This document shows positions 1,125 to 44,250 of a stretch of 56,290 bases of DNA, piece by piece. The translations under genes and the position numbers were made by a program. Location: NCBI GenBank assembly GCA_963514005.1, contig CAUPSL010000726.1, positions 1 through 56,290 of the forward strand. The letters run 5' to 3'. How positions within the stretch are numbered: the stretch's first letter is position 1; the number at the start of each line of letters is the position of its first letter. The notes beneath the pieces are model-generated. The model did no database searches. It was not told where the DNA came from and was given only the letters and a program-made list of their open reading frames with translations. The stretch comes from Raja brachyura. Lineage: Eukaryota.

Positions 1125-1212
1125 ATGGGGGTTAGTGACTGGCAGCGGATACTTATATTGTGGAATGTCCAGTATTACTTTCGTTACATTATTACAGTCA
1201 TCGGACTGCTCA
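1125..1212 (+). CDS. GPR139/GPR142-like class A GPCR copy 1, coding exon 1 (N-terminus and first half of TM1)
   Basis: gcgATGg Kozak context; encodes MGVSDWQRILILWNVQYYFRYIITVIGLL, then a phase-1 donor A|GTAAGT; splices in frame (A+GT=Ser) to exon 2. Confidence 0.88.
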
Positions 1213-2190
1213 GTAAGTCGTTTTATCTGCTTGCCATTTAACAGCGTTGAGGGGTTGAATTTTGCAACTGCTCCTTCGCGTCAGGAGAGTGAAACTTTGA
1301 GCGGGGTTTGTCCATCTAAAGTATCCGACACCCAAACACAACTCCACACCAGGTCTCTGATTTTATTCAAGAAGTTGCATATTGTGTACTGTGTTAGTAG
1401 ATGTCAGTTAGAGTAAGTCGGCGCTTAATGCCGACGGGGAACTGAAGAGGCTCGCCGATAGGAGGGGGAGACACTCGTAGTGGCTCAGAAAGGGTCGCAG
1501 TGCGCGGTCCCTGCGCGGCTCCCGAGCTGGTGATTTGTGTAAAATGCTGCCCCCGTCAACACAAGTCCTCAACTTTAATGCCACTGAAAAGCCAGAATTA
1601 GAATCCTTTGTTTGCCGATCACCCGGACATTTGTTAGGACGGTTTCTGAAGTGTATAGTAATTCCGGATGGGGAAGTCAGCACAAAGGTGGCGTTCACTG
1701 GACACGGCTACTCCATCTCACCCCACACCACGCAAGCCCACCTTCAATGGACGAGTTTAATGATGAGGTGGGGCAATTGGAAGACAGTATGCGAGTGTTT
1801 TCTCATTTGATACAGTGAATTAATCAACAGCTTCCTTTGTGTAGGAGATGGTGGTAGCATGGCTTGTGAGAGCGGGTGTGAGGGGATTTATTCTGGGACG
1901 TCAGAACCAATTCCTGAGGTGTTGTGGACCTAACTCAACGAAACACCAGTGAAGGGAGGTGCCCACTTGATTAATCCTTTGATATACTTGCATCTGCACG
2001 GTCAGTTATTTTTCATGCGCCTGTTAACATATAGATAGCTGATTATTGCATATTGCCCATACCAGCATCTGGTGGCTGCCATACCGCAGGACAGCAGTAG
2101 GGGTCGCGCCTGCACCATGATCACCAACATTGAGAACACCTTGCACCTGATGACCAGATTCAAAGGCTGCTTGTAATCATTTCCTCACAG

Positions 2191-3080
2191 GTAATTTAGT
2201 GGCGATCGTCGTTCTCGGACGAGGAAAGTGCGGACTGTCTCGATGCATCACACAATATATGGTGGCGATGGCGGCAGCAGATCTATTGGCCGTCTTCTGC
2301 AACGTGGCGATATTTTACCTGTACGCTGTGATTTTTCCGTACTTCTGCACTATTGCATGCACCCTACAACAAGTGATGGCCTATGTGTCCCTGGACTGCT
2401 CAGTGTGGTTAACTGTCGCTTTTACATTTGATCGCTTTGTGGCCATTTGTTGCCAGGACTTTAAGACCAAGTACTGCACAGTTAGAATCGCCAGGGTAGC
2501 GATAGCAACAGTGTATGTGGTGAGTTTAATACGGAACATCCCCTACTACTTTTCATTTCAATCTCGTCACTTAAATCTGCCACTTGAATGTGAGGCCAAA
2601 CCGGAATATTATTCCCACCCTGGGTGGATTGCTTTCTCGTGGATTCACAACATTTTAACCCCTCTGCTTCCGTTTTTCGTTATTGTGTTGCTCAATATAC
2701 TGACGGTCAGAGCGATCGTGGTGGCAAGCCGAGCCCGCAGGAAGCTCCGAGCTCCCGTCAGTGGCGAGAAACAGGAGGACCCGGAGATCGAGAGTCGAAG
2801 GAAATCGATCATTTTACTCTTCTGTGTGTCCGGCAGTTTCATCCTCCTGTGGCTGACGGAGGTGATGCTCAACATTTATACGGATATTGCCAACGAACAC
2901 TATGTCCCAAACTGGGCTCATCCTCGGACAATGGCAAATACAGCCGGGAATATGCTTAAAATTCTGAGTTCGTGCACGAACACGTTTATTTATGTGATGA
3001 CTCAGTCTAAGGTCAGAGACGAACTGAAGAATGCAATCAAGTATCCCTTCACAATATGTCTTAAGCTTGTTAGAAGATAA
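2191..3080 (+). CDS. GPR139/GPR142-like class A GPCR copy 1, coding exon 2 (rest of TM1 to C-terminus); 325 aa in total, intact
   Basis: Acceptor tttcctcacAG|GT AAT TTA GTG. Motifs NLVAIVVL, AMAAADLL, SVWLTVAFTFDRFVAIC, NIPYY, LLPF, FILLW and NTFIY match GPR139-type receptors (ALAAADIL, TSIWITVPLTIDRYIAVC, SIPYY, NFFLY). Confidence 0.93.
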
Positions 3081-3330
3081 AATAGAATTAAGAATTGTGG
3101 ATTTGTTAATGAAGTGGGTAACGGGGTAACCATAGCAAAAAATTTCAATGTGGTAAAAAATCACAGCATAGACTGGTGTGTCTAGGAATGTTGCAAGGGG
3201 TAGTTTGGCGGTGCTGTCTCGAAGGGCGGAATGGCCTCCTCCTGCACCTATGTTCGATGTTTCTATGTTTTCTATGAATGTTTGGAACAACTATCTCGGG
3301 ACTGACACAATGTGAGCTGATTGCCGGAGC

Positions 3331-3503
3331 CAGAGCCGAACTTTTACCTGCTGAGGCCCTAAGTTGTATGAAATTTGAGGCCCTTCTCGAAAAACATTCG
3401 GGTAAAAAATGATTAAATAAATATATATTTCAAAAAATGATGTCCCCGAGGGTGTGTGGCCCTAAGCTATAGCTTATTTAGCTTATAGGTAAGTCCAGCA
3501 CTG
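3331..3503. mobile_element. hAT-type MITE, unit 1 only
   Basis: Imperfect TIRs (CAGAGCCGAACTT at the left, AAGTCCAGCACTG at the right), perfect 8-bp TSD GCCGGAGC (3323-3330, 3504-3511); empty site in units 2 (~22290) and 3 (~44430). Confidence 0.85.
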
Positions 3504-3647
3504 GCCGGAGCACGGAGTAAAGGGAATGAATGAGGCCAGCTCTGAATATTTCTGGACCGGGCTCCCTGTATGTGTCAGAGTAAATCACCGGTGCCCCCTG
3601 CAGACCGGTTGTGTCATGATCCTAAAATCGGTTACAGTATTTCAATA

Positions 3648-4383
3648 TTGTCTGCAACGAGACCTGGGTGTCATGGTACACCAGTTATTGAAAGTAGGCA
3701 TGCAGGTGCAGCAGGCAGTGAAGAAAGCAAATGGTATGTTAGCATTCATAGCGAAAGGATTTGAGTATAGGAGCAGGGAGGCTCTACTGCAGTTGTACAG
3801 GGTTTTGGTGAGGCTCACCTGGAGTATTGCGTACAGTTTTGGTCTCCAAATCTGAGGAAAGACATCCTTGCCATAGAGGGGGTATAGAGAAGATTCACCA
3901 GACCGATTCCTGGGATGTCACGACTTTCATAAGAGGAAAGATTGGATAGACTAGCCTTGTACTCGCTGGAATTTAGAAGATTGAGGGGGGATCTTATAGA
4001 ACTTACAAAATTCTTAAGGGGTTGGACAAGCTAGATGCTGGAAGATTGTTCCCGATGTTGGGGGAGTCCAGAACAAGTGGTCACAGTCTAAGGATAAGGG
4101 GGAATTCCTTTAGGACCGAGATGAGGAAAGCATTCCTTACACAGAGAGTGGTGAGTCTGTGGAATTCTCTGCCACAGAAGGTAGTTGCGGCCAGTTCATT
4201 GGCTATATTTAAGAGGGCGGTAGATGTGGCACTTATGGCTAAAGGGATCAGGGGGTATGGAGAGAAGGCAGGTACGGGATACTGAGTTGGATGATCAGCC
4301 ATGATCACATTGAATGGCGGTGCAGGCTCGAAGGGCCGAATGGCCTACTCCTGCACCTATTGTTCTATGTTTCTATGTTTCTA
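3648..4383 (+). mobile_element. CR1 LINE 3' fragment, unit 1 only
   Basis: Degenerate ORF2 C-terminus (QRDLGVMVH, KKANGML, RTSGHSLRI, TQRVVSLWNSLP) and (TTCTATGT)n tail; empty site tatttcaat|aaaactaatg in unit 2. Confidence 0.9.
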
Positions 4384-8793: not shown

Positions 8794-8820
8794 TCTACAC
8801 TTATAAAACTCTGATCTTGG

Positions 8821-13690: not shown

Positions 13691-16169
13691 GGAATAAACA
13701 TGTACACTACTTTCTAAATGGAGACAGCATTCCTTAACGCAAAGGTACAAAGCAACTTAGGAATACTGGAGATAGACACAAGGAGTACATGCAAATGCCA
13801 AAGCAACAGTATGCTTGATAGATAAAAAAAGGTACAATTACTCGGCGGGACAGGCAGCGAGAAGGAATGGGTGACGTTTCGGGTCAAGACCCTTCCTAGA
13901 TGTCTATCTTCGGTTTAAACCAGCATCTGCAGATCTTTTTTTATGGAACACTACACTTGCCCAGGATCGAACCCGTATATTAGGCGCTGTGAGGCAGCAG
14001 GACTACGACCTGCGCAACTGTGCCGATCAAACGTCATAAGTCTCCATATGTGTCAAATGGGGAAAGTAAGGCAGATTCGGTACCCACACCACCCACATTG
14101 TGCGCATTCTTCACAACCTGCTGTACCTAATTCTAAGATATTCCATAGTATATGGGGAAAGTACATTTTCGAGCAAAAAGTTCAACAAGGATATTTGAGG
14201 ATAGTTAGATAATTTATTGAGCAATTTGAACTACAAAGAAAAATGAAAACAATCGTGACACATAGTGACATAGGATGGGAACAATAGGTCGGAGAAGACA
14301 AGAGAGGCGGGAAAACCATCAGATGTGAACAACACTGAGATGTATAATTGAGGAACTATCACGCGCCGGGCAATGGCCCTGAGCTAGGAGGTGGAATGAG
14401 ATGGATTCTCATTTTAATTATTTGTACACGAGGGACCGAATCGCCTTATTCGGTGTTGTATACGTTCCTTGACTCCAATATTCTGCCATTTGACCTCTAC
14501 TGGGGAAGATCAATGGGAATGGCGTCCTTGCCATGGATCCCACTCTGTTTTGACCCAAACCTGACGTGGGTGAGTTAATGTCGGTCTGAGATCTTTCTCG
14601 TCACACGCTGAATTGTCTACCGTCCAAAAATTGGCGGTGAGTGGATGGGTCCTGACATTGGGCCGGCCAACGTTTGTCTGAAATTAACCGGAATCAGACG
14701 GAATGGATTGATGGAGCGTGTGAGCCCTCTAGCGGATCCGCAGTGGAATAACAGGACTGCTGAACTCAACCGGTTCCTCCCTCGTTCTTGGTTTTTCCGC
14801 GGGTCCCGCCAGAGGTCCTTGTTCGATTTTCCACCGAGGCGCGTGTATTGCATCGCCCAATTAAATGCACATTTATCAATCGCGATTCGCAAATGATGGA
14901 AGGAACCGGAGAGTTTGGAATTGCATTCATGTTTCAAGTATCACATTCTTTTTCTTCTTTAGAGTTTGTAACTATCCAGTTTCCATTGTTCTCCGGATGG
15001 GAGAGAAACTAAGATTCTCATCCTCCTTTGAGGTTTCAACCCGGGTAATGCGTGTCCGTGTGCAGTCCTTCCCGCAGTGATGGATACTACTGTTAACTAC
15101 CCTCTGGGCACATTGTGAGACGCTGGCATATCGTACAGGTATTATTTTAATTAGGTTTGCCGCTATAACGTAGACACAGACCTATCACCCCACTGAGCCC
15201 ATGCCGACCACTGATCAACCGGTCACCTTAATTCCGCGTTATCCCACGTTCACATCCACAATCACAAACCACGGGCAACTTCACACAGACCTAAAAAATA
15301 AACAGCACGTCTCCGAGATGTGGGAAGAAACATGAACACTAACACATGCGGATCCAGGGGTAACGTGAAAACTCCATCCAGGCAGCGCACGAGGTCAAGG
15401 TTGAACCCGGCTCTCTGCCGCTGTGAAGTTGCAGATTTACCATCCTCGCCATTCTGCCGCTCTTGTGCAACATGTATCTGTCTCTCATCACAAATCTCAA
15501 TTTGTGCCTCAGTGGCGAGAAGAAAACTGATTCACTCACCGTCTACGCGCGCTGAATGCCTTCGTCATTAACTAGTAGGGATATTATTTTGAGTGTATAT
15601 GGGGGACATATACTGTTCATAGAAAAAAAACGAACGAAAATTGCAGGTATTTGCATCATTCTTTGAACGACTGGAAGTAAAAATAGAACGCTTTCCCCCA
15701 CGAGTAGTGGCACAGGATGGGAACTAGAAGCCGCGGAGGACGGGAGAGGCAGCGAACTCACGGTGTCCAACTAACACTGAGGAGCCATGAACCCTCCGTA
15801 GTCGCCGCTACGGATGACCAGATGTACATGCCCTCTCGTCGGGATGATCGAAACTCCGACGTAGAGACGGTCGAACATACTCCGCGGCTGGGAGTGCCCA
15901 GATTGGACACTTTCTTACTGGACACCGCGACTTCAGGAAGTTATGGGCCATGGGCCGTCGGTCGGAGCTCTTCTGCGGCGATCCCCGGCAAGGGATCCCA
16001 GGCTCCGGACGCTAACTCCACACCACCCCTGCGGCTAGAAGTTCCGTAGACCACAGCCCCATGATGCCAAAGTCACCAGGCCAGCGATCGGAGCTCTCCT
16101 TTCTGGCGACCCCGGCAAGGTTTCGACCCTGCTGGCAGGGCAGCCGACTCACAGTGCCTCCAACCGACC

Positions 16170-16950
16170 AATTAGATAGCTATCTAACTACTTAATAATA
16201 AAGCTGGTGGACAGGTAGCCGGCTAGATAGCTAGATAGCTAGTCAGCGTGTTAAATAGTTACATATACAGAAAGCGAACTATATACGTTGCTGGATAGCT
16301 CGATATTAAGATCGTTAGATAGCTCGATATCTGGACAGATATTCTGGAGAATTGTCTCGACCCAAAATGCCATCTATTCCTTCCAGAGATGGTGCCTGTC
16401 CCGCTGAGCTACTGCAGCAGTTTGCGTCTATCCTAGATAGATAGCCAGGTAGGTGGGTAGCCAGATAGATAGATAATTCGATATTTAACATGATATTTGG
16501 GTTGCTTGGTAGCTAGATAGAAGGATACCAAGATAGTTACATAGATAGATAGCCACATAGTTGGTCGCGAGATAGATACAAATATATCAAGTTATCTTGA
16601 TGAATGGAATGATCGATAGCTAGCGAGCAGGACCTGGTTATCCAGCTGTCCAGACAGCGAACTAGTTAACTTCATGGTAAAATTGGTGATTCGCTTTATA
16701 GCTAGATTGCTCACCAGCTAGGTAGATTGCTAGAGAGCTAGATATCTAGATAGATAGCTGGCTAGCTATAGCTGGATAGCTCGATGTTTAGGTAGTCAGA
16801 TTGCTGGATATCCGGAGATGATACCCAGGTAGCTAGATAGCCAGGTATCCAGACTTCCATGATATGAAGCTAGCTGGCTCGTTAAATACATAGTCAGATG
16901 TATAGTCCGATAGGTAGATTGCCCGCTGGCCAAGTAGGTATACAGGCAGA
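16170..16950 (+). repeat. Degenerate (TAGA/TAGC)n-rich repeat; paralog at ~36040-36560
   Basis: Seen directly. Confidence 0.75.
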
Positions 16951-16974
16951 CGATACCCGGACATGGCATTGAAG

Positions 16975-17275
16975 GACGAAACGCCGAAGCAAAGAAGTGG
17001 AAACCAAATAAGCGAACGGAAACGACGCCAAAAAGCCAAATAACTGAAAGCTGACGAAGCAGAAAAGCCAAATAACCCCAAGCGTAGAAGCCGAAAGCCA
17101 ACTAACCCAAAGGGCGGGACGGCGAAACGCCAACTAACCGAAAGGGCGGGACGCCTAAAGCCAACTCACCGAAAGGCCGCAATGCCGAAACGCCAAATCA
17201 CTGAAAGGCCCATAACGCCTAGAAGGCAACGCACCCAAAGGCCGCAATACCGAAAAGCCAATTAACGGAATGACG
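16975..17275. repeat. About 30-bp degenerate minisatellite (ACGCCGAAAGCCAACTCACCGAAAGG-like); paralog at ~36585-36805
   Basis: Seen directly; possibly subterminal repeats of a DNA transposon. Confidence 0.65.
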
Positions 17276-17761
17276 TCGCCGGGAGGACGGGACTTGTCAG
17301 AAATTGATCCAGACCCCCTCGTCCTTCACATCACTGGCCGGGGGAGATGAGAGGGTGGGCCCACACAAGACATAGGTGACTGGGCACCCGAGCACCAAGG
17401 GGTAAGCGGCAATGAGCGCATCCCGCGGGACAGCCCCACTTTCCCACGGCCACGGCCGCCCTCCGCCTCGTCTCCGCCATGCGGCCGCGCTGTGACGGGC
17501 TGTGGGTTGGCAGCATACACACACTGGTGGCCGACTGGAGCAGAGTTGGGGACATTCTGGACCCTGCGCCCACCCAGTGTCTCTGACCGCCATGCACCAC
17601 CACCGGACCCCGACCCACACATGGGGTGATTCACCCCCCGATACTTACGCCGGGCGATCCCCCCCCCCCCCCCCCCTCTGCCGCGTGGACAGACGGCAAT
17701 GGTCTCAACTCGAAACGTCGCCTATCCCTTCTCTCCATAGATGCTGCCTCACCCGCTGAGT

Positions 17762-18150
17762 TTCGTCTTATTTGGTGTCGGCTGCAATCTTACTAATTGG
17801 GCTTCGTTTAAGGATACTTTCCTGCACACATTTGACAAATTCCACCTCATCTCAGCCCTTTGCCCCAGGGCCGTCACGGTCTTTATTTGGGACCGTTTTT
17901 ATCCCCCAACTCTGAGAATACTATTCGTCTCAAAGTTGCCTCCAATCTCCGGCTATATATTTGTCCTTCTAATGCTCGTGGCCTTCTTGCAGCCCAATAT
18001 TACACCGACAACAAGACAAACATTCCCGTTTTTTCGTAGCTCCGATTATAGTCGCTGACTGGACGAACCGTCAGTAATGGCATGTCCAACATCAGCCGGG
18101 AAGTTCTCCTTCATCGGAAAGACAATTCCCACCCCGCACCTGTACCCTTG
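17762..18150 (-). mobile_element. Degenerate CR1 ORF2 endonuclease fragment
   Basis: Paralog of 37475-37868; reverse translation gives remnants of CR1 APE motifs. Confidence 0.6.
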
Positions 18151-18247
18151 TCCAGGGGGCTCCACATGTTTCAGCATGAGGGCCACATTATATATTTGGC
18201 ACATTTTGGAGGGCAATGGGAAAAAATAAAATCGTGTAAATGTTATA

Positions 18248-18492
18248 NNNNNNNNNNNNNNNNNNNNNNNNNNNNNNNNNNNNNNNNNNNNNNNNNNNNN
18301 NNNNNNNNNNNNNNNNNNNNNNNNNNNNNNNNNNNNNNNNNNNNNNNNNNNNNNNNNNNNNNNNNNNNNNNNNNNNNNNNNNNNNNNNNNNNNNNNNNNN
18401 NNNNNNNNNNNNNNNNNNNNNNNNNNNNNNNNNNNNNNNNNNNNNNNNNNNNNNNNNNNNNNNNNNNNNNNNNNNNNNNNNNNNNNNNNNNN
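18248..18492. other. Assembly gap (245 N) abutting a GA-rich satellite (18493-18710)
   Basis: N run. Confidence 0.99.
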
Positions 18493-18913
18493 AGGGGGGC
18501 GGCGAGAGAGAGGCAGAGAGAGAGGGCAGATGCCGAGAGAGGGAGAGGGAGGGAGAGAGGCAGAGAGAGAGAGAAAGGGAAGAAAGAGATGGCAGTAAGA
18601 GATAGAGCATATAGAGAGAGGCTAGATAAAGTGAGTCCAGATAGAGAGAGGCAAAGAGGGCAGAGGCAGAGTGGCAGAAAGGCAGAGAGGGAGGGCGATC
18701 AGAGAGAAAGAGGTGAAAGGATGATAAATGATTAGACGGAATGTTTAGGGTGATGTGGTCCAATCACAACAAATCGGACTAGCTTAAATGGAGCCTGGTA
18801 GACAGCATGAACGAGTTGGACCAAAGGGCCTGTATCCCAGAGCCACGATTCAATGACTCTATGTCTATGACACACAACAGGTCAGGTAGGTATTATAACA
18901 GCATTTAAGAAGA

Positions 18914-19175
18914 GGGCGGCACGTTTTACAGCGGCAAAGACCCAGGTTCAATCCTGACTATGGGTGCTGTCTGTATGGTGTTTGCATATTCTCCCTGAGA
19001 CTACGTGGGTTTTCTCCGGTTGCTCTGGCTTCCTCCAACACTCCCAAGACGTACAGTGTTGTAGATGAATTGGCTTTGATCAAATTGTAAATTGTCACTG
19101 GTGTCTGTAGGGTAGTGCGAGTGTATGGGGTGGCCACTGGTTGGTGGACCAAAGGGCCAGTTTCCACGCTGCATC
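18914..19175 (+). mobile_element. V-SINE (HE1-like)
   Basis: tRNA-like head GGGCGGCACG...GGTTCAATCC, V-domain core and CR1-like tail. Confidence 0.75.
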
Positions 19176-20003
19176 ACAAAACCTTTTTGAAATCTCTTAC
19201 CTCGACAAAGATGCGACGTACCGTATATCCGTCTGCACTGCGGCCGAACATCCAGGAGTTGGCGGCCTTTGCTGGAGACCGACCTCGGAGCTCCAACCGC
19301 GGGAGCCAGCAGGACTTAACATCACGGAGCTCGAGGTCTCTGGTTGGAGACCGACTTCGAGAGCTCCAAGCCTCAGGGGCTTCGATCGCCCCGACGGGGA
19401 GGTTCGACTGTCCCAACCGCGGGAGAATTCAGGCACAGGTTAATGATTTGGGAAGATCAGCCATGATCAAAATGAATGGCGGTGCTGGCTCGAAGGGCCG
19501 AATGGCCTCCTCCAGCACCTATTTTCTATGTTTCGAGAATAAAGAGGGAAGAACTTTGAACATTATTGCCTTCCATCACAGTGAGGAATGTGGGCAATCC
19601 GCTGTGGTGGATGTTTATATTAACTTTCATGTAGTTGTGTGTCTTGTGCTTTTTTTTAGTATGGCTGTATGGTAATACGGATATCACTGTAACTTAATTG
19701 GTAGACGGACATTGGGCAGCGAGTTGGGCCGAAGGGTCTGCTTCCACACTCTATGACTCTATGACTCTAAGATCTATGTTGGCGTCCTTGCATCCTTCCC
19801 TGATGAGGTTCCCGGTTGAAAACATAAAACTTAGATACAAAACAGGCTGAGCAGGTGTTGGCAGATGTACAAAACAATCTCAGGACAATCTCAAGAGGTA
19901 TTTCAGAAATAGCAGGTAAACAGAATTTCACAACTGGTTTAAAGTAGCCGAATTAATGTGCAACTGGGAGAAATGTAATTGACAACATCAGGATTTCGTG
20001 AGA

Positions 20004-20011
20004 TATAAATA
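20004..20011 (+). promoter_or_regulatory. Putative TATA box, GPCR copy 2
   Basis: TATAAATA about 100 bp upstream of ATG 20106. Confidence 0.6.
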
Positions 20012-20105
20012 AACGCGAGCGGGGACCTTGAGCTACTGGCAGAGACGATCTACCTGGGACCATTGTCAGTACAGGCGGCATCTTTATGTCCCACCTACAT
20101 CAGCG

Positions 20106-22051
20106 ATGGGGCTGAGTGTCTATCAGCGGGCACTTATATCGTGGAAAGTCCAGCATTACTTTGATTACATCATTACAGTCATCGGACTGCTCAGTAAGTC
20201 GTTTTATCTGCTTGCCATTTAACAGCGTTGAGGGGTTGAATTTTGCAACTGCTCCTTCGGTTCACGAGAGTGAAACTTTGACCGGGGTTTGTCCATCTAA
20301 AGTATCCGCCACGCAAACACAACTCCACACCAGGTCTCTGATTTTACTTCAAGAAGTTGCATATTGTGTACTCTGTTAGTAGATGTCAGTTAGAGTAAGT
20401 CGGCGCTTAATGCCGACGGGGAACTGAAGAGGCTCGCCGATAGGAGGGGGAGACAAATAACACTCGTAGTGGCTCAGAAATGGTCGCAGTGCGCGGTCCA
20501 TGCGCGGCTCCCGAGCTGGTGATTTGAGTAAAATGCTGTCCCCGTCAACACAAATCCTCACCTTTAATGCCACTGAAAAGCAGAATTAGAATCCTTTGTT
20601 TGCCGATCACCCGGACATTTGTTGGGACGGTTTCTGAAGTTTGTAGTAATTCGCGATGGTGAAGTCAGCACAAAGGCGGCGTTCAGTACCGGGGCTCTAC
20701 TGGACACGGCTACTCCATCTCACCCCACACCACGCAAGCCCACCTTCAATGGACGGCCGCTGTTGCACTCGGAACCTCGGGGTTTATGCATTCGTTCTGT
20801 TGGCATTAATGGATCGACGCATTTGTTAATTACACATTATCAGTGTGTATTGAGTTGAAGCCAGTTTGCCAGTAAGAATTTCATCATTCCGTATTCGATA
20901 CATATGGCAATAGAACACTTTTCACAACTCCACATTCACAATACATTTCTTTGTAAGTGTATTCAGTGTAAGTATATCCCGGTTTTATGCCATGCTGGTA
21001 ATTGTGGCGCTACGAGTTTAATGATGGGGTGGGGTAATTGGAAGACAGTATGTGAGTGTTTTCTCATTTGATAACGTGAATTAATCAACTGCTTCACAAC
21101 CTTCCCTCTAACTGCTCCCTTTTCCTTTCTTCACCCCGCTGCTTGTAATCATTTCCTCACAGGTAATTTAGTGGCGATCGTCGTTCTCGGACGAGGAAAG
21201 TGCGGGCTGTCTCGATGCATCACCCACTATATGGTGGCGATGGCGGCAGCAGATCTATTGGCCGTCTTCTGCAACGTGGCGATATTTTTCCTTTACGCTG
21301 CGATTTTTCGGTACGTTCCCACCATTGCATGCACCCTACAACAAGTGATGGCCTATGCGTCCCTGGACAGCTCAGTCTGGTTAACTGTCGCTTTTACATT
21401 TGATCGCTTTGTGGCCATTTGTTGCCAGAACTTTAAGAACAGGTACTGCACGGTTAGAATCGCCAGGGTAGCGATAGCAACAGTGTATGTGGTGAGTTTC
21501 ATTCGGAACATCCCCTACTACTTTGCATTTTATTCTGAATATATAGGCCTGCCCGTTGGATGCATGAAAAGCCGGAATATTATTCCCACCCTGGGTGGAT
21601 TGCTTTCTCCTGGATTCACAACATTTTAACCCCACTGCTTCCGTTTATCGTTATTGTGTTGCTTAATATCCTGACGGTCAGATCGATCGTGGTGGCGAGC
21701 CGAGCCCGCAGGAAGCTCCGAGCTCCCGTCAGTGGCGAGAAACAGGAGGACCCGGAGATCGAGAGTCGAAGGAAATCGATCATTTTACTCTTCTGTGTGT
21801 CCGGCAGTTTCATCCTCCTGTGGCTGACGGAGGTGATGACCTTTATTTATACGCATATTGCCAACATGCACAATGCCCCACACTGGGCTCATCCTTTGGC
21901 AATGGCACAAACAGCCGGAAATATGCTTAAAATTCTGAGTTCGTGCACGAACACGTTTATTTATGTGGTGTCTCAGTCTAGGGTCAGAGACGAACTGAAG
22001 AATGGAATCAAGTATCCCTTCACAATGTGTCTTAAGCATGTTAGAAGATAA
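20106..22051 (+). pseudogene. GPR139-like GPCR copy 2 (exons 20106-20193 and 21163-22051) with a single -1 frameshift at ~21566-21570
   Basis: Exon 1 MGLSVYQRALISWKVQHYFDYIITVIGLL, A|GTAAGT. Exon 2 is split into ORFs 21171-21629 and 21560-22051; it reads TGC ATG AAA AGC CGG versus TGC ATG GAA AAG CCG in copy 3. Could be an assembly indel. Confidence 0.85.
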
Positions 22052-22637
22052 AATAGAATTAAGAATTGTGGATTTGTTAATGAAGGGGGTAACGGGGTAA
22101 CCATAGCAGCAGCGTCTATTAATATTTGAGCTAAAGACACACTGGTGTGTCTGGGAATGTTGCAAAGAGTTGTTTGGAGGTGCTGGCTCGAAGGGCCGAA
22201 TGGCCTCCTCCTGCACCTATTTTCTATGTTTCTATGTTTTCTATGAATGTTTGGAACAACTATCTCTGGCACAATGCCAGCTGATTACCGGAGCAGGGAG
22301 TAAAGGGAATTAATGAGTCCAGCTCTGAATATTTCTGGACCGGGGTCGCAGTGTTTGTCAGAATAAATGACCGGTGCCCCCTGCAGACAGATTGTGTCAT
22401 GATCCTAAAATCGGTTACAGTATTTCAATAAAACTAATGAATGATTTGTGTCCTGTGGATCGTATGCAAATCTGAATAATGTGACCTATTTACAATTGCA
22501 TGTACTGTTACCGCATTTTGCATATGATGTGTTCATGTACAACTCTGCTGCAAAGTGCTCTGTTCGACAAAGCCTGCTGGATGTCCGGTTGCAAACCATT
22601 TAAAATCCCCTTCATTGGCTGGGAAGATTGCAACCTT

Positions 22638-23113
22638 CACATAGCAAAAGGATTTGAATATAGGAGCAGGGAGGTTCTACTGCAGTTGGTCAGGATTTTG
22701 GTGAGACCACACCTGGAGTATTGCGTCCTGTTTTGGTCTCCAAATCTGAGGAAAGGACATTCTTGCCATGGAGGGGCTCAGAGAACGTTCACCAGACTGA
22801 TTCCTGGGATGTCAGGTTTTTCATATGAGGAAAGGCTGGATAGACTCGGCTTGTATCGCTAGAATTTGGAAGATTGAGGGGTGATCTTATAGAAACTTAC
22901 AAAATTCTTAAGGGGTTGGACAGGCTAGATGCAGGAAGATTGTTCCCGATGTTGGGGAGGTCCAGAACAAGGGGTCACAGTTTAAGGATAAGAGGGAATT
23001 CCTTTAGGACCGAGATGAGGAAAACATTTTTCACACAGAGAGTGGTGAGTCTCTGGAATTCTCTGCCACAGAAGGTAGTTGAGGCAGTTCCTTGGCTATT
23101 TTTAAGAGGGACT
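22638..23113 (+). mobile_element. CR1 LINE ORF2 C-terminal fragment
   Basis: LVRPHLEYCV, RGDLIETYKIL and FFTQRVVSLWNSLP motifs. Confidence 0.88.
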
Positions 23114-23139
23114 TCTTAGGAATCTTAATTAATAAATAA

Positions 23140-30380: not shown

Positions 30381-30751
30381 TTAAAAGTTTGCGGTTATTT
30401 TAAGGATTCGCAGTTCATTTGAAAAGGCTAAATATTTAACAAATCGACAACAGATTAAAAAAAACATTTCATTGTGATTGATTTCATACTACAGGAAGGG
30501 CTCTGAAATTACTACAAGAAATTGATCTGTTTTCATTGACAACTGAGATTTAAAATCAATTTCTTTGTGATTGATTGCATTTGATCTGAAAGATTTCATT
30601 TTGAATAAATTAATCAGTCTTCATTGATAATACATTTATCTGTCTTCATTGATAATTGAGAGTGTGTTTGGGCTTTTTTTCAATCAGAAAGATTCAATTT
30701 TGAATAAATTAATCCTCTTTTCATTAACAACTGAGATTGTGTTTTCAAATC

Positions 30752-35428: not shown

Positions 35429-35429
35429 T

Positions 35430-35573
35430 CGAGTTCCCGGTGGTTCTCGGAGTTTTTTGTCAGTCTCCCTAATGGTCGAAACTGACAAAAACCTCCGGAA
35501 ACGGCACGGCAACCTTGGGTGGGGCACAAAGTCTCCAGAGGTTTCCGTTCAGGTTTCCTAAGTGGGACAGGAA
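35430..35573. mobile_element. PIF/Harbinger-like MITE fragment at the Helitron truncation point
   Basis: End TTTCCTAAGTGGGACAGG (reverse complement CCTGTCCCACTTAGG) and an internal inverted repeat. Confidence 0.45.
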
Positions 35574-37972
35574 CATTACACACAGACCTATCACCCCCCT
35601 GAGCCCATGCCGACCACTGATCAACCGTTCACCTTAATTCCACGTTATCCCACGTTCACATCCACAATCACAAACCATGGACAAGTTCACACAGTCCAAA
35701 AAAAAAACCAGCACGTCTCCGAGGTGTGGGAAGAAACATGAGAACTAACACATGCGGATCCAGGGGTAACGTGAAAACTCCGTCCAGGCAGCGCACGAGA
35801 TCAAGATTGAACCCGGCTCTCTGCCGCTGTGAGGTAGCAGATTTACCATCCTCACCACTCCGCCGCTCTTGTGCAACATGTGTCTGTCTCACATCACAAT
35901 TCTCAATTTGTGCCTCAGTGGCGAGAAGAAAACTGATTCACTCACCGTCTACGCGCGCTGAATGCCTTCGTCATTAACTGGTTGGTGCCTTCGTCATTAA
36001 TGGTGCCTGTCCCCGCTGATTTACTGCAGCAGTTTGCGTCTATCCTAGATAGATAGTCAGGTAGGTGGGTAGCCAGATAGATAGATAATTCGATAGTTAA
36101 CATGATAGCTGGCAGCTGGGTAGCTAGATAGAAGGATACCAAGATAGTTACATAGAGAGATAGCCATATAGTTGGTCGCGAGATAGATACAAATATATCA
36201 AGTTATCTTGATGAATGGAATGCTCGATAGCCAGCTAGCAGGACCTGGTTATCCAGCTGTCCAGACAGCGAACTAGTTAACTTCATGGTAAAATTGGTAA
36301 TTCGCTTTATAGTTAGATTGCTCACCAGCTAGGTAGATAGCTGGAGAGCTAGATATCTAGATAGATATCTGGCTAGCTATAGCTGGATAGCTCGAAGTTT
36401 ATGTAGTCAGATTGCTAGATATCCGGAGATGATGCCCAGGTAGCTAGAGAGCCAGGTATCCAGACATCCATAATATGAAGCTAGCTGGCTCGTTAGGTAG
36501 ATAGCCAGATGTATAGTCCGATAGGTAGATTGCCCGCTGGCCAAGTAGGTATACAGGCAGACGATACCCGGACGTGGCATCGAAGGACGAGACGCCGAAC
36601 CGAAGAAGTGGAAACCAAATAAGCGAACGGAAACGAAAACTGAAAGCTAACGAAGCAGAAAAGCCAAATAACCGCAAACGTACAAGCCGAAAGCCAACTC
36701 ACCGAAAGGGTCGGACGGCGAAAAGCCAATGAGCCGAAAGGGCGCGACGCCCAAAAGCCAACGCACCTGAAGGCCGCAATACAGAAAAGCCAAATAACGG
36801 AATGACGTCGTCGGGAGGGCGGGACTGGTCAGCAATTGATCCAGACCCACGCGTCCATCACATCACTGGCCGGGGGAGACGTGAGGGTGGTCCCACACAA
36901 GACATAGGTGACCGGGCACTCTGAACCCGAGCACTAAGCTGTGAGCGGCCGAATGAGCGCATCCCGCGGGACAGCCCCCTCTCTCCCACGGACACGACCG
37001 CCCTCCGCCTCGTCTCCCCCATGCGGCCGCGCTGTGACGGGCTGTGGGATGGTGGCAGACGCACACAGGTATGAGGTTGGCAGCATAGACACACAGGTGG
37101 CCGGGTGGAGCAGCTTTGGGGACAGTCTGGTCACTGACCGCGATGCACCGCCACCGGACTCCCGACCCACACATGGGGTGATTCACCCCCCGATAGGGGA
37201 ATAAAAACGTTCCCAAATAAAGACCGTGACGGCCCTGGAACAAAGGGCTTAGATGAGGTGGAATTTGTCAAATGTGTGCGAAGGAATAAGCGACTGGCGA
37301 CCCCCCCCCCCCCCCCCCCCCCCCCCCCGGCCGCGGGGACAGACGGCAATGGTCTCAACCCGAAACGTCGCCTATTCCTTCGCTCCATAGATGCTGCCTC
37401 ACCCGCTGGGTTTCTCGAGCATTTTCTGTCTACTTTCGATGTTTCCAGCATCTGCGGTTCCTTCCTGGACATTTAGTGTCGTCTTATTTGGTGTCGGCTG
37501 CAATCTTACTAATCGGCCTTCGTTTAAGGATACTTTCCTGCACACATTTGACAAATTCCACCTCATCTGAGCCCTTTGCCCCAGGGCCGTCACGGTCTTT
37601 ATTTGGGAACGTTTTTATCCCCCTACTCTGCCAATACTATTAGTCTCAAAGCTGCCTCCAGTCTCCGGATATATATTTGTCCTTCTAATGCTCGTGGTCT
37701 TCTTGTAGCCCAATATTACACCGACAACAAGCCATACATTACGCTTTTTTCGTAGCTCCGATTATAGTGGCTGACTGGACGAACCGTCAGTAATGGCATC
37801 TCCAACATCAGCCGGGAAGTTCTCCGTCATCGGATAGACAATTCCCACCCCGCACCTGTACCCTTGTCCAGGGGGCTCCACATGTTTCAGCATGAGGGCC
37901 ACATTATATATTTCGCATATTTTGGCGGGCAATGGGAAAAAGTAAAAACGTGTCCATTTTATAAATTTAATA

Positions 37973-38180
37973 NNNNNNNNNNNNNNNNNNNNNNNNNNNN
38001 NNNNNNNNNNNNNNNNNNNNNNNNNNNNNNNNNNNNNNNNNNNNNNNNNNNNNNNNNNNNNNNNNNNNNNNNNNNNNNNNNNNNNNNNNNNNNNNNNNNN
38101 NNNNNNNNNNNNNNNNNNNNNNNNNNNNNNNNNNNNNNNNNNNNNNNNNNNNNNNNNNNNNNNNNNNNNNNNNNNNNNNN
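37973..38180. other. Assembly gap (208 N)
   Basis: N run. Confidence 0.99.
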
Positions 38181-38730
38181 GAGAGCGAGAGAGAAGGAAG
38201 AGAGAGGGGAGAGAGGGGAGAGAGGGGGCACAGAGAGAAGGCAGAGCGAGAGATAGGGCAGAGAGAGAGGGGACTGGGAGATAGGGAAGAGAGAGAGCAG
38301 CGATTGAGAGGGCAGAGAGAGAGAAGCCGAGAGGGCAGAGAGAGAGGGCAAAGAGAGAGGGCAGAGAGAGAGGGCAGAGAGGGAGGGAAGCGAGATATGG
38401 GCAGAGAGAGAAAGCAAAGGTCGAGAGAGGCAGAGAGAGGGCAGAGAGAGAGGGCAGTAAGAGGTAGAGCATATGTAGAGAGGCTAGATAGAGAGAGTCC
38501 AGATAGTGAGAGGCAGAGAGGGCAGAGGCAGAGTGGCAGAAAGGCAGGGAGAGAGAGATCAGAGAGAAAGAGGGGGCAGAGACAGAGAGAGGGCAGTGAC
38601 AACGAGAGGGCAAAGAGGGAGGGGGCAGAGAGAGAGAGGGCAGGGAAAGACAGGGTAGAGAGAGAGAGGGTAGAGAGAGAAGGGGGGACAGATAGACAGA
38701 GAGAGAGAGAGAGGGCAGAGAGAAGGGGCG
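38181..38730. repeat. Polypurine (GGGCAGAGAGA)n-like satellite
   Basis: Seen directly. Confidence 0.92.
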
Positions 38731-40124
38731 GAGAAGTACGATCGCACACTGTAACGCGCCACCGACCCATTCTGACCGCCGCAGCCGAACAACCCCCCCC
38801 CCCCCCGCACCCGGATTGCAACCAACTTGTACTTCACAGCGGCCCTTGTGATGTCTCGGCTCTGACACTTCGAGGGATCTAGCCGGTAACAACTCTAAGA
38901 ACAGCTCCAGGCCGCCGCGCTCCCCAACTCGAATCCACGCCGAACTGACACGCGCTCCGTCCTGCGCTGTGCTTGGTTCGGGCCGGAGTAAATCTCGTGG
39001 CGGGCCAGATGTGGCCCGCGGGCCATAGTTTGGAGACCCCTTGCCTTTGACCATCAACATACCAGTCTTGTGCCTTCCGCAGCCAGATTAACATTACGGT
39101 CAACACAACACTCAACGAACCAACCCACGCTCTGAGTTCATCCGCCTCACCCGCCAGGCTTCTTGCATTAAAGTAAAAGCAACTTAATCCTGCCTCGTTC
39201 GTTACCGAGCGTCGGCACATCCTCTCGACTGAACTTGCATTAATCTCCTTCCATAACATCTTCCACCTTCTCACCTGCCCTAATCCTGCGTTGGATCCCG
39301 CCCCCCTTACAATCTAATCTATACTCACCAGAGTAGCACTGGCAGACCTGCCCGCCGGGATATTGGTTCATCGCCAGTTCGGCTCCATACCACCCCTGTT
39401 GTACAGGTCACATCTGCCCCGGGAAACATCCAAATGTTGACCAATCTGAAATTCCGGCCCAAATCCCCGGCCACAAAAACACATTCCCATCTCCGGGTCT
39501 TATACTCACAAGCACATGCCACGAGGAGCAATCTCAAGATGACTTCTTGTCCCCATTAATTTTCGGCCCCTCTTTCTTCTCCCACCGACCACCTTGCATC
39601 TCCACCCTACTGTGCGGCTGAGCATCCTACTCCACCTCTCCTCTACCTGTGTGACACCTGTTATCTCCTTTTCATCCCTAGGCTTCCCACTCACTCCACC
39701 AACCTGCCAAACAGATCGCCGTCCCCTGCATCAACCTAACACTTACTAGGATTTATCCCGACCCAGTTTCCCTATTCCACCCCCCCACCCCCCCCCCCCA
39801 CCCACACACACACGTACCGGCCTGTAGAACGGTCCCAACCCGAAATGTCGTCTGTCCTTTCCCTCCCCAGATGCTGCCTGAGCCGCTGAGTTCCTCCAGC
39901 ACTTTGCCTTTTACTCAGGATTCCAGCGTCTGCAGTTCCCTGTGCATTTGACTGCACATCCACAGATTAGCCGGTACTTTGTGATTTCCGGAGAGGGGTG
40001 CAGCACGGCAACGGGTCCCTCGGCTGCGAGTGTTTACCTTTGAAAACCAACATCTGCAGCGCCTTCCTACTCAACATTTACCAACAGATGAGCAATCTTG
40101 AACCACAGAGCACAGGTTCATATG

Positions 40125-40875
40125 TGATTGGAGCAGGATTGGTCATTCGAATCAAGTCTACCCCGCCATACAATTGTGGCTGATCTATCTACCCCTCCTA
40201 AACCCATTCCCCATAACCCCTGACACCGGTATTAATAAATAACCTGCCTTAAACATATCCCTTAACATGGCCTCCGCATCCTTCTGTGGCAAAGAACCAC
40301 AGATTTACTGCCCTCGGTCGAAATAAATTGCTCCTAATGACCTTCCTAAAATAACCTCCCTTAATTCTGAGGCTATAACTTCTGGTCCTAGACTCTCCCA
40401 CTGGTGGAAACATTCTCTCCACATGCACTCTATCCAAGCCTTTCACCATTATGTACGTTTCAATGAGGTTCCCCCTTCATTCTCCTAAAGTCCAGTGACT
40501 ACAGGGCCAGCGCTGGCAAACGCTCACCATGGGTTAACCCACACATTTCTGGGGTTATTCTTGTACACAAGAATATGGGTTTGAAGACGAGACTGGAATG
40601 GTTGAATAGGAACCTGAGGGGCAACCTTTTAACTCGGGGAACGGTTGGTTTATGGAACGTGTTGCCAGGGGATGAGGTTGGGACAGGTACAGTAACTAAT
40701 TTCAAATAAATTGGACAGGTGTAAGAATGATAAATGGTTAGACGGAATGTTTAGAGTGATGTGGCCAAGCACAGAAAATTGGACTAGCTTAGATGGGGTC
40801 TAGTAGACAGCATGGATGCGTTGGGCCAAAGGGCCTATATCCCAGTGACATGATTCTATAACTCCATATCTATAA
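40125..40875. mobile_element. Two CR1 3' fragments (minus ~40125-40545, plus ~40570-40875)
   Basis: KGLDRVHVERMFP...ESRTR motif and CR1 3' UTR/tail. Confidence 0.7.
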
Positions 40876-40917
40876 CACTCAGCAGATCAGGTAGGTACTA
40901 TAACAACATTTAAGAAG

Positions 40918-41180
40918 AGGGCGGCACGTGGTAAAGCGGCAAAGAGCCAGGTTCAATCCTGACTGTGGGTGCTGTCTGTGTGGAGTTTGTACGTTCTCCC
41001 TGTGACCACGTGGGTTTTCTCCGGGTGCTCTAGTTTCCTCCAACACTCCCAAGGCGTACAGGTTTGTGGATGAATTGGCTTTGATCAAATTGTAAATTGT
41101 CACTAGTGTCTGTAGGGTAGTGCCTGTGTACGGGGTGGCCACAGGTTGGTGGACCAAAGGGCCTGTTGCCACGCTCTATC
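40918..41180 (+). mobile_element. V-SINE (HE1-like)
   Basis: Paralog of 18914-19175. Confidence 0.75.
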
Positions 41181-41902
41181 ACTAAAGTCGAAAGTCTAAA
41201 AAACATTTGGACAGTTACATGGATAGCCAGGTTTAGAGGATATTGGCCAAAAATGGGCAAATCCCCAATGGATGGCGCCAGCATTGGCTGCATCGCCAAC
41301 AGTCTGACGGCCGCTTCTTTCTTTGTTATTTTAATAATATGGGTTAATGTATGCTTTAATCTTCTTTATCTTATTTATGTGGGAGGAGGGCGGGGGGGGG
41401 GGGGGGGGGGGGGGGTTCTGGCCAAAACGTCTTTTTAATCTCTTACCTCGACGGATGTTTATATTAACTTTCAAGTAGTTGTGCGTCTTGTGCTTTTTTT
41501 TAGGATGGCTGTATGGAAATACGGATATCACTGCAACTTAATTGTTACACGGACAATAAAAAACCTTTGAACCCTTTGAAATGGGACTAGCAGTGTTGGG
41601 CATATTGGTCAGCATGGGCGAGTTGGGCCGAAGGGTCTGCTTCCACACTCTATGACTGTATGACTCTAAGATCTCTGTTGGCGTCCGTGCATCCTTCCCT
41701 GGTGAGGTTCCCTGTTGAAAACTTAAAGCTTGGATACAAATCAGGCTGAGCAGGTGTTGGCAGATGTACAAAACAATCTCAGGACAATCTCAAGAGGTAT
41801 TTCAGAAATAGCAGATAAACAGAATTTCACAACTAGTTTCAAGTAGCCGAGTTAATGTGCAACTGGGAGAAATGTAATTGACAACATCAGGATTTCGTGA
41901 GG

Positions 41903-41910
41903 TATAAATA
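41903..41910 (+). promoter_or_regulatory. Putative TATA box, GPCR copy 3
   Basis: TATAAATA about 100 bp upstream of ATG 42001. Confidence 0.6.
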
Positions 41911-42000
41911 AACGCGAGCGGGGACCTTGAGCTACTGGCAGTGACGATCTACCTGGGACCATTGTACAGGCGGCATCTTTATGTCCCACCTACATCAGCG

Positions 42001-42088
42001 ATGGGGCTGAGTGTCTATCAGCGGGTACTTATATTGTTCCAAGTCCAGAGTAACTTTCGTTACATCATTACAGTCATCGGACTGCTCA
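42001..42088 (+). CDS. GPR139/GPR142-like GPCR copy 3, coding exon 1
   Basis: MGLSVYQRVLILFQVQSNFRYIITVIGLL, then A|GTAAGT donor. Confidence 0.88.
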
Positions 42089-43366
42089 GTAAGTCGTTTT
42101 AACTGCTTGCCATTGTGTTGAGGGGGTGAATTTTGCAACTGTTCCTTCGGTTCACGAGAGTGAAGCTTTGACCGGGGTTTGTCCATCTAAAGTATCCGCC
42201 ACGCAAACACAACTCCACACCAGGTCTCTAATTTTACTTCAAGAAAATGCATATTTTGTACTGTGTTAGTAGATGCCAGTTAGAGTAAGTCGGCGGTTAA
42301 TGCCTACGGGGAACTGAAGAGGCTCGCCGATAGGAGAGGGAGACTAAACACTCGTAGTGGCGCAGAAATGGTCGCAGTGCGCGGTCCCTGTGCCGCTCTG
42401 ATGAAAAAATGATGCCACTGTCAACACAAATCCTCACCTTTAATGCCACTGAAAAGCCAGAATTAGAATCCTTTGTTTGCCGATCACCCGGACATTTGTT
42501 AGGACGGTTTCTGAAATGTGTAGTAATTCCGGATGGGGAAGTCGGCACAAAGGTGGCGTTCAGTACCGGGGCTCTACTGGACACGGCTACTCCATCTCAC
42601 CCCACACCACGCAAGCCCACCTTCAATGGACGGCCACTGGTTGCACTCAGAACCTCGGGGTTTATGCGTTCGTTCTGTGGTCATTAATGGATCGACGCAT
42701 TTGTTTACACATTATCAGTGTGTATTGAGTTGAAGCCAGTTTGCAAGTAAAAATGTCATCATTCCGTATTCGATACACATATGGCAATAGAACACTTTTC
42801 ACAACTCCACATTCACAATACATTTCTTTGTAAGTGTATTTTACCACATTCACAATACATTTCTTTGTAAGTGTATACACTTTGTAAGTGTATCCCGGTT
42901 TTATGCCATGTTGATAATTGTGGCCCTACGAGTTTAATGATGGGGTGGGGTAATTGGAACATAGTATATGAGTGCTTTCTCATTTGATAGAGTGAATTAA
43001 TCAACAGCTTCCTTTGTGTAGGAGATGGTGGTAGCATGGCTTGTGAGAGCGGATGTGAGGGGATTTATTCTGGGACGTCAGAACCAATTCCCGAGGTGTT
43101 GTGGACCTAACTCAACGAAACACCAGTGAAGGGAGGTGCCCACTTGATTAATCCATTGATATACTTGCATCTGCACGATCAGTTATTTTTAAGCGCCTGT
43201 TAACATATAGATAGCTGATTATTGCATATTGCCCATACCAGCATCTGGTGGCTGCCATACCGCAGGACAGCAGTAGGGGTCGCGCCTGCACCATGATCAC
43301 CAACATTGAGAACACCTTGTACCTGATGAGCAGATTCAAAGGCTGCTTGTAATCATTTCCTCACAG

Positions 43367-44250
43367 GTAATTTAGTGGCGATCGTCGTTCTCGGACGGGG
43401 AAAGTGCGGGCTGTCTCGATGCATCACCCACTATATGGTGGCGATGGCGGCAGCAGATCTACTGGCCGTCTTCTGCAACGCGGCGATATTATGCCTTTAC
43501 GCTGCGATTTTTCGGTGCATTCCCACTATTGCATGTACCCTACAACATGTGATGGCCTATGTGTCCCTGGACTGCTCAGTCTGGTTAACTGTCGCTTTTA
43601 CATTTGATCGCTTTGTGGCCATATGTTGCCAGGACTTTAAGAACAGGTACTGCACGGTTAGAATCGCCAGGGTAACCATAGCAACAGTGTATGTGGTGAG
43701 TTTAATACGGAATATCCCCTACTACTTTGCATTTGAACCTTATTATGGAAACGTTGAATGCATGGAAAAGCCGGAATATTATTCCCACCCTGGGTGGATT
43801 GCTTTCTCGTGGATTCACAACATTTTAACCCCTCTGCTTCCGTTTTTCGTTATTGTGTTGCTCAATATCCTGACGGTCAGATCGATCGTGGTGGCAAGCC
43901 GAGCCCGCAGGAAACTCCGAGCTCCCGTCAGTGGCGAGAAACAGGAGGACCCGGAGATCGAGAGTCGAAGGAAATCGATCATTTTACTCTTCTGTGTGTC
44001 CGGCAGTTTCATCGTCCTGTGGCTGACGGAGGTGATGCTCAGCATCTATTCCGATATTGCCAACAAACACTATGTCCCACACTTCGCTCATCCTAGGGCA
44101 ATGGCTAAACGTGCCGGAGACATGCTTAAAATTCTGAGTTCGTGCACGAACACGTTTATTTATGTGGTGACTCAGTCTAAGGTCAGAGACGAACTGAAGA
44201 ATGCAATCAAGTGTCCCTTCACAATGTGTCTTAAGCTTGTTAGAAGATAA
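43367..44250 (+). CDS. GPR139/GPR142-like GPCR copy 3, coding exon 2; 323 aa in total, intact
   Basis: Acceptor tttcctcacAG|GT AAT TTA GTG; ORF 43375-44250 with the same 7TM motifs as copy 1. Confidence 0.93.

Follow-up and report, generated by a model that had tools for sequence, protein, structure and literature searches.

Human GPR139 is the receptor of solved structure that best matches the genes described here (E = 4.6e-11). It is, with GPR142, one of the class A orphan G-protein-coupled receptors (GPCRs); it is activated by L-Trp, L-Phe and alpha-MSH, signals mainly through Gq/11, and binds agonists in a pocket formed by positions 2x62, 3x32, 6x51, 6x54, 6x55 and 7x38 and by extracellular loop 2 (ECL2) (PMC8807744; papers are given by PMC number, each cited for part of its text). 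In fish and coelacanth, GPR139-like subtypes have been described as GPR210A, GPR210B and one unnamed set, with no shark genes or expansion named in the part cited (Rinne et al. 2019, PMC6504862). The receptors of cartilaginous fishes are generally thought to be few: 20-62 olfactory receptor genes in one survey (PMC10869828) and ~10-50 in another, where the number is explained as sensitivity traded for discrimination (PMC10116579). Tan et al. (PMC8455134) describe GPCRs in general as relatively scarce in the group. Here, we describe three receptor genes on a 56,290-nt stretch of DNA from the skate Raja brachyura (GenBank contig CAUPSL010000726.1, positions 1 to 56,290; hereafter the window), which is contig C775 in our numbering of a 2.70-Gb genome (C for contigs, L for loci and P for database proteins). 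These genes belong to a family that is almost certainly a selected ligand-recognition repertoire of some kind. Judging from sequence, we lean towards a large chemosensory repertoire, probably olfactory, and predict olfactory-type expression.

Three genes from a large receptor family

The window carries three class A GPCR genes, all on the plus strand. Each consists of an exon 1 of 88 bases and a long exon 2, separated by a phase-1 GT..AG intron where transmembrane helix 1 (TM1) ends. Copy 1 has its exon 1 at 1125..1212 (N-terminus and most of TM1, 29 codons plus 1 base, with the GT donor next), at a position that matches RefSeq models P0003 and P0004. Its exon 2 at 2191..3080 runs intact from the end of TM1 to the stop, matches Pfam 7tm_1 and completes a protein of 325 aa. 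Copy 3 (exon 1 at 42001..42088, exon 2 at 43367..44250) is likewise intact and encodes 323 aa, with a 6-base deletion in ECL2 common to two paralogues on C50. The exon 1 of copy 2 (20106..20193) differs at 0/87 bases from that of L033, a paralogue on C707, and its exon 2 (21163..22051) has lost one base in ECL2 (GG read as G at ~21566), which shifts the reading frame. An earlier, sequence-only reading of the window had recognized the three recent paralogues and missed this frameshift. As assembled, copy 2 is either a young pseudogene or an assembly error; the two cannot be told apart because short base runs are also where most of the single-base shifts of sister copies lie. Intron 1 measures 978, 969 and 1278 bases in copies 1, 2 and 3 and ~1,400 in the closest sister copies, and that of copy 2 is unlike the others until ~25 bases ahead of the acceptor.

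Membership of class A rests on a Pfam 7tm_1 match above the cut-off; the OR (odorant receptor), TAAR and vomeronasal Pfam families give no match at E<=0.001, the hits being just 7tm_1 and a sub-threshold Srx. An AlphaFold model of copy 3 has the GPCR fold (mean predicted local distance difference test score 81) with TM-scores of ~0.7 to peptide receptors, among which GPR139 does not stand out in a fold search. Across 84 family proteins, D2.50, R3.50, N5.58, R6.30, F6.44, N7.49 and Y7.53 are invariant in 84/84, and the pocket columns show an entropy of 2.3-3.4 bits.

A protein search of the genome yielded 2,621 first-look candidates, and each of the 134 that were scored has an E below 1e-20. 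A 29-base degenerate pattern for the TM3 motif FTFDRFVAIC has 693 exact matches in the genome (reversed control 0). We hand-picked 40 matches across contigs C1-C15 from 100 listed: 40/40 are family members and 32/40 have an open exon 2, so that roughly 550 open genes would carry this motif alone. The motif is present in 13/31 loci found on the same contigs by an independent pattern for intracellular loop 3 (ICL3), and in 6/15 loci of a 200-kb array in which exon 2 is open in 15/15. Because the motif thus misses many members, capture-recapture puts the total at about 1,650 loci (1,140-2,820), an estimate that counts pseudogenes and possible assembly duplicates. Some loci may indeed be such duplicates. 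The subfamily to which the window's copies belong has 23 near-full copies on C50, C707, C775 and C1488, 11 of them intact and 12/23 broken. Together with at least 693 loci, these broken copies bear out the birth-and-death family that had been proposed from the window, and the worry that it might comprise a few copies genome-wide is laid to rest.

The family extends to other species, with 2,176 protein clusters (90% identity) in the databases at E<=1e-10. Among the best 120 of these, 119 bear a shark or ray name and one is unnamed; the nearest database proteins are from skate (73-83% identity). No chimaera protein appears among the named matches, in a search that was not aimed at chimaeras. Shark database models P0012, P0013, P0016 and P0021 are 430-490 residues long, P0012 being a partial receptor joined to a whole one, and such overlong models are probably neighbouring genes merged by automatic annotation.

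Many family loci also sit less than 2 Mb from an end of one of the largest scaffolds (C1:0.4-0.7 Mb, C3:133.3 Mb, C10:0.05 Mb, C11:69.8-70.0 Mb, C12:67.6-67.9 Mb, C13:0.02-0.5 Mb and C14:67.7-67.9 Mb), a position that may point to subtelomeric arrays. Evenly spaced copies with near-equal scores lie at C25:13.10-13.47 Mb (every ~20 kb) and C29:2.67-2.74 Mb (every ~14 kb); these runs are probably very recent tandem amplifications.

Selection and recombination around the predicted pocket

The variability of these receptors is concentrated on their extracellular side, as the sequence-only reading had claimed. All of the N-terminal, ECL1, ECL2 and ICL3 strings that it quoted are present in the translations, and ICL3 is identical in the three copies. 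Its hand count is exact as well: with the proteins divided into outward, middle and inward thirds from predicted helices, the outward third (108/296 codons) holds 27/36 amino-acid differences between exons 2 of copies 1 and 3 (binomial p = 3e-6), the inward third 8/36 and the middle third 1/36. To call the cytoplasmic face invariant was too strong, given these 8/36 inward differences and an inner omega (the ratio of nonsynonymous to synonymous substitution rates) of 0.39. The identity of ICL3 between copies 1 and 3 is also partly due to recent exchange, because 4/240 bases differ across TM5-ICL3-TM6.

Codon models (self-coded; Goldman-Yang, F3x4, empirical Bayes without parameter averaging) favour positive selection in two subfamilies. 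For the 11 intact copies of the local subfamily, twice the log-likelihood difference (2dL) between M2a and M1a is 117 (121 with free branch lengths). The comparisons of M8 with M7 and M8a, which had been named as a check, give 127 and 116, with an omega of 5.5-6 at 9-10% of sites. All sites with a posterior >0.9 (18/18) are outward, and they lie in the N-terminus, at 1.32 and 1.39, in ECL1, at 3.29, in ECL2 (five sites), at 6.54 and 6.55, in ECL3, and at 7.31, 7.32, 7.35 and 7.36. A second, distant subfamily (~50% identical; 14/20 copies, picked from matches without stops) gives a 2dL of 245, an omega of 8.6 and 21/22 flagged sites outward, including 2.61-2.65, 3.29, 3.32, 6.51, 7.35, 7.36 and 7.39. 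Taken together, the two subfamilies have an omega of ~6-9 at 7-10% of sites, nearly all round the predicted pocket, and by alignment the flagged positions include or adjoin those of the GPR139 agonist pocket (PMC8807744, in part). Divergence among the 9 youngest copies follows the same pattern, at 0.146 in ECL2 and 0.148 in TM6-ECL3-TM7 versus 0.081 in the first 400 intron bases and 0.019 in the promoter, as expected from the earlier claim that loops would diverge more than introns. We left out L040 from the codon models (altered splice acceptor), L185 from a 12-copy test described below (outlier), and L032 from one pairwise average, as its exon 2 equals that of L031.

Recombination between paralogues contributes to this pattern, since the nearest neighbour of a copy changes segment by segment. 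Copy 2 shares its exon 1 with L033 and is nearest to L036 in ECL2 (1/71) and the ECL3 region (4/105). Copy 3 has ECL2 and its 6-base deletion in common with L031/L032 (1/66) and differs at 18/105 bases in the ECL3 region. L034 matches L035 over TM1-TM4 (2/354 differ) and copy 1 in the ECL3 region (2/105). L031 and L032 themselves (C50:6185108 and 6202816) have an identical exon 2 and an exon 1 that differs at 8/87 bases, within a 14-kb block that is 98.8% identical. A test of the pairwise homoplasy index (PHI) type gives p = 0.002 for 9 young copies and p = 0.005 for 20 copies, both at the permutation floor. The selection signal survives separate trees for each segment, with 2dL = 55 and omega 5.9 in the local subfamily and 2dL = 126 in the second subfamily (12 copies). 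In 30 simulations on mosaic trees without positive selection, the single-tree 2dL has a mean of 21 and a maximum of 49, compared with 117 observed; this simulated null applies to the single-tree test.

Several results weigh against selection as the whole explanation. Region-wide omega in the local subfamily is 1.04 in the outward, 0.34 in the middle and 0.39 in the inward third, so that the outward average is about 1, and dS is likewise raised in the outward third; old segments kept by recombination therefore explain part of the pattern. Recombination alone lifts the single-tree test to its mean of 21, and the PHI-type test is not significant on synonymous-only codons (p = 0.41, 24 sites). Moreover, omega can be inflated by steps that take more than one base change, and 12/39 of the nonsynonymous steps at flagged sites take 2-3. 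The claim of diversifying selection thus stands for single sites in two subfamilies and does not extend to an outward-third average above 1 in the local subfamily, and the loop pattern is selection in part and exchange between paralogues in part.

These same observations bear on the view that the array is mostly redundant, a product of segmental duplication with relaxed constraint and patchy gene conversion in the loops. An outward omega of ~1.0 with raised dS, 12/23 broken local copies, and the position of the copies in repeat-rich duplication units would all fit it. Set against this, site models reject neutrality in two subfamilies after recombination controls, the outward omega reaches 1.33 in the second subfamily, and exon 2 is open in 15/15 loci of the 200-kb array and in 32/40 sampled loci. 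Subfamilies are also common to sharks and rays, and promoters are conserved. Redundancy is therefore largely refuted already, and we regard it as very improbable.

Promoters and the predicted sensory expression

Upstream of each gene lies a putative core promoter, at 973..1029 for copy 1, 19954..20010 for copy 2 and 41853..41909 for copy 3 (all +). In copy 1 it comprises TAATGT with a weak box resembling an O/E (Olf/Ebf) site at 973-988, a second homeodomain site, TAATTG, at 995-1000 and a TATA box at 1023-1029; the layout in copies 2 and 3 is the same. To compare promoters across the family, we located exon 1 by profile in 33/35, 17/20 and 15/20 of the loci fetched in the first, second and third round; its splice donor keeps the same position. 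In the first round, TATAA occurs 40-140 bases before the ATG in 29/35 promoters (background windows 12%), the most enriched 6-mer upstream of it is TAATTG, and an O/E-like box often follows, mostly after two bases. Boxes were scored against TCCCNNGGGA, which we take to be the O/E (Ebf) consensus.

With related promoters merged, we defined a composite as a homeodomain site, a gap of 0-3 and a box with <=3/8 mismatches, 170-50 bases before the ATG. It is present in 9/19 discovery, 5/13 second-round and 4/8 third-set unrelated promoters, 18/40 in all, against a background of 2-3%; 0/300 shuffles reach this count, and the best other scrambled box of 300 scores 15 versus 18. For the third set the definition was fixed beforehand (4/8 versus 2.8% background, p = 4e-5, 0/300 shuffles). 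Individually, the O/E-like box occurs in 25/40 and the homeodomain site in 29/40 unrelated promoters. A second composite pattern has 66 matches versus 25 for its control, ~14 of them in known arrays, and is partly circular. A longer strict pattern built from five related genes was rejected as a family motif, being found at just those five sites, as expected of subfamily homology.

Promoters of this kind resemble those of mouse odorant receptors, which are enriched in O/E, homeodomain and TATA sites (PMC3247239) and whose enhancers carry an adjacent Lhx2/Ebf composite (PMC5608512). TAATGA is the characteristic site there (PMC8213819), and several family promoters bear TAATGAGT, as in the mouse extended site quoted in that paper. 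The sequence-only reading had listed chemosensory, pheromonal and immune roles; the promoter evidence narrows this list towards sensory neurons. An immune role would mean innate sensors on leukocytes or barrier epithelia, locked in an arms race with microbes or parasites like formyl-peptide receptors. Antagonistic evolution of this sort would be consistent with an omega of 6-9 at the pocket rim, with the mosaic make-up of paralogues and with the many arrays close to large-scaffold ends, and Ebf1 is a B-cell factor. On the other hand, homeodomain cores head the enriched 5- and 6-mers of the promoters, the ten best include no Ets/PU.1-like word, and no direct immune evidence was found; we consider this role quite unlikely.

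A chemosensory role outside the nose, in solitary chemosensory cells of skin or mouth, somatosensory ganglia or gut sensory cells, like that of mammalian MRGPRs, is unlikely in our view. Family size and the evidence for selection fit it equally well, CTAATTG resembles an Isl1-type site, and Ebf is active in many peripheral neurons. Cartilaginous fishes are also without MAS1 and its relatives, according to the part cited of Tan et al. (PMC8455134), which would leave such a role open. What speaks for the nose instead is that adjacent homeodomain and O/E sites are the described control signature of odorant receptors (PMC5608512) and that several promoters carry the mouse extended site (PMC8213819).

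The preferred olfactory reading has evidence to contend with as well, beginning with the promoters themselves. The composite is absent from 22/40 promoters and present in 4/40 control windows from the next 120 bases upstream. The O/E-like box of the window's subfamily is weak (3/8 mismatches), even though the window promoters still pass as composites. A held-out test anchored on exact TATAA failed for the homeodomain site (0/13) and passed weakly for the box (3/13, p = 0.007); the anchor-free composite test was defined after this failure and pre-stated for the third set only. Its controls were limited to background windows, shuffles, upstream windows and scrambled boxes. TAATTG is a generic homeodomain core, and Ebf is active in B cells and other neurons too. 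Regarding expression, a search of RNA data with copy 3 listed no RNA run as holding the sequence. Four read runs over copy 3 cover the intron with no GT..AG joint; they behave as relatives' DNA and are silent on expression and on the frameshift. Finally, catshark olfactory neurons are described as all microvillous and expressing V2Rs (PMC10116579, in part).

Under the olfactory reading, the family would work as follows. Tandem duplication, loss and unequal exchange would make the arrays grow and shrink, point changes under selection would retune the rim of the pocket, and gene conversion would shuffle N-terminal, ECL2 and ECL3 segments into new pocket combinations. Lhx2-type homeodomain and Ebf-type factors would bind the promoter motif, resulting in sparse expression in olfactory-type sensory neurons. 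Each receptor would then bind a different ligand in its diversified pocket, possibly a water-soluble amino-acid derivative or a peptide, and signal via the conserved inner face.

Origin and place among known receptors

The name 'GPR139' given to these proteins is a best-hit label, because the true GPR139 is a separate gene and the family groups elsewhere in the tree. The genome's own GPR139 is represented by one match to a TM3-derived pattern, on C21, and is 24% (23-24%) identical to copy 3. A tree of 55 proteins unites the 38 family members from sharks and rays in a single group (Shimodaira-Hasegawa-like approximate likelihood ratio test, SH-aLRT, 91). Their sister is a gene of salamander, frog, caecilian and sturgeon (SH-aLRT 100), and GPR139 falls in another part of the tree. 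This was a quick run with SH-aLRT only, a midpoint root and a long GPR139 branch, made without a topology test or a verified GPR142 sequence. As judged from this tree and the sequence identities, the family is a lineage separate from GPR139 and not its orthologue. The GPR139-like label of the sequence-only reading thus holds insofar as GPR139 is the best solved-structure match, and an origin as duplicates of GPR139 is refuted; the phylogeny that it had proposed instead places the family beside the amphibian and sturgeon gene. That sister gene forms about one cluster per amphibian species, with a reedfish match too, and the expansion is probably specific to the cartilaginous-fish side. The sister type (P0217 and its relatives), conserved and unexpanded, occurs in each of the three amphibian orders as well as in sturgeon and reedfish, and its matches include neither an amniote nor a clear teleost. 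Two separate relatives in the skate genome, L071 (C24:30.97 Mb) and L072 (C5:119.2 Mb), group with coelacanth and teleost 'GPR139-like' proteins. They resemble the subtypes of PMC6504862 in this respect and are possibly GPR210A/B, although the Ensembl ids in the part of that source available could not be mapped to present sequences.

The family shares the GPCR fold with GPR139, and the window's copies keep the His at GPR139 position 187 and Trp 241. The GPR139 pocket as such is not preserved, as E108, F109, H187, W241, R244 and N271 align in copy 3 with A, Y, H, W, E and D. Thus Glu stands at Arg244 and Ala at Glu108, a hypervariable site takes the place of Ile248, and the family counts hundreds of copies, not one. 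Shark and ray RefSeq/UniRef models called 'probable G-protein coupled receptor 139' are the same family under automatic names, with no description; some members are labelled vasopressin V2, capa or GPR15-like, and the names returned by the ESM Atlas are solely of GPR139 and FMRFamide-receptor type.

Similarities to established chemoreceptors lie in organization. Like OR, TAAR, V1R/ORA, V2R/OlfC, T1R and T2R, the family has hundreds of clustered genes with birth and death, a variable pocket and a conserved inner face, and like mouse odorant receptors it has a homeodomain plus O/E promoter motif. It combines three traits of an olfactory-type repertoire: a clustered birth-and-death family, a variable pocket with a conserved signalling face, and homeodomain and O/E sites. 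It differs from OR, TAAR, V1R, V2R and T2R in its unrelated sequence and in the single intron, at the end of TM1, that interrupts its coding region. The expansion of a peptide-type class A lineage into sensors with selected extracellular faces is shared with mammalian MRGPRs and formyl-peptide receptors, which belong to another lineage and are >10 times smaller as families. An OR profile finds 1 classical OR-family match genome-wide, on C1434.

Besides the receptor genes, the window contains several repeated elements. Self-BLAST delimits a duplication unit round copy 2 at 15171..23114 (+), mostly 86-94% identical to its repeats; its upstream part recurs at 35577-43011, and the gene with its downstream part at 1-4382. 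The window was rejected as a near-identical alternate haplotype of C50 (6.11-6.26 Mb) or C707, as matches are only block-wise and <=97% identical. Between copies 2 and 3 lies a Helitron-type element (29438-35482, +). Its three reading frames (31324-33339, 33260-34795 and 34799-35482, +) encode Helitron_like_N, PIF1 and Pif1_2B domains, and tandem repeats of 127 bases (AT-rich) and 69 bases come before them. At 23245-24465 (+), an open frame of 407 codons contains a reverse-transcriptase domain and is probably a CR1/L2-type fragment of a long interspersed nuclear element (LINE); further LINE fragments are dispersed over the window. At 17004-17270 and 36690-36767, 3-5 kb upstream of the second and third genes, a 32-base satellite precedes GA-rich repeats. 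C50 and C707 carry it too, within the local duplication unit, against one weak match in 60 other fetched stretches. In 80 fetched stretches it matches 5 places, 4 of which belong to the local array, and it was rejected as a family-wide feature. Rfam and tRNA searches gave no match.

The family is apparently undescribed as such, with its genes already in RefSeq under automatic names. No published description was found in the open literature, which lacks most subscription journals, as judged from titles, term counts and the starts of abstracts. The family is missing from the cited parts of the OR/TAAR/V1R/V2R surveys (PMC10869828, PMC10116579), and term look-ups in PMC11979771, PMC10620051, PMC10115646, PMC8455134, PMC10869828, PMC6368271 and PMC12294341 returned no mention of it. 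GPR139 names were not found in the supplementary files covered from Tan 2021 (12/24 files), Marletaz 2023 (2/3 files) and Matz 2023 (one small file).

The boldest account of these genes would be one more vertebrate olfactory receptor family, shark- and ray-specific and of >1,000 genes. It would go back to one GPR139-related orphan, still unexpanded in amphibians and sturgeons, would have acquired the homeodomain plus O/E promoter code for receptor choice independently, and would renew its ligand range as paralogues exchange pocket segments; we give this account in full an even chance. Since gene models exist under a misleading name, the question is testable with existing shark and skate RNA data, and the unexpanded amphibian relative of the P0217 type is a candidate route to the ancestral ligand. 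Whatever the tissue, 700-1,700 selected receptor loci contradict the claim that cartilaginous fishes are poor in GPCRs. If the family is olfactory, it would answer how animals with large olfactory organs manage with so few known receptors, and the idea that smell in sharks and rays depends on only a few dozen of them would have to be given up.

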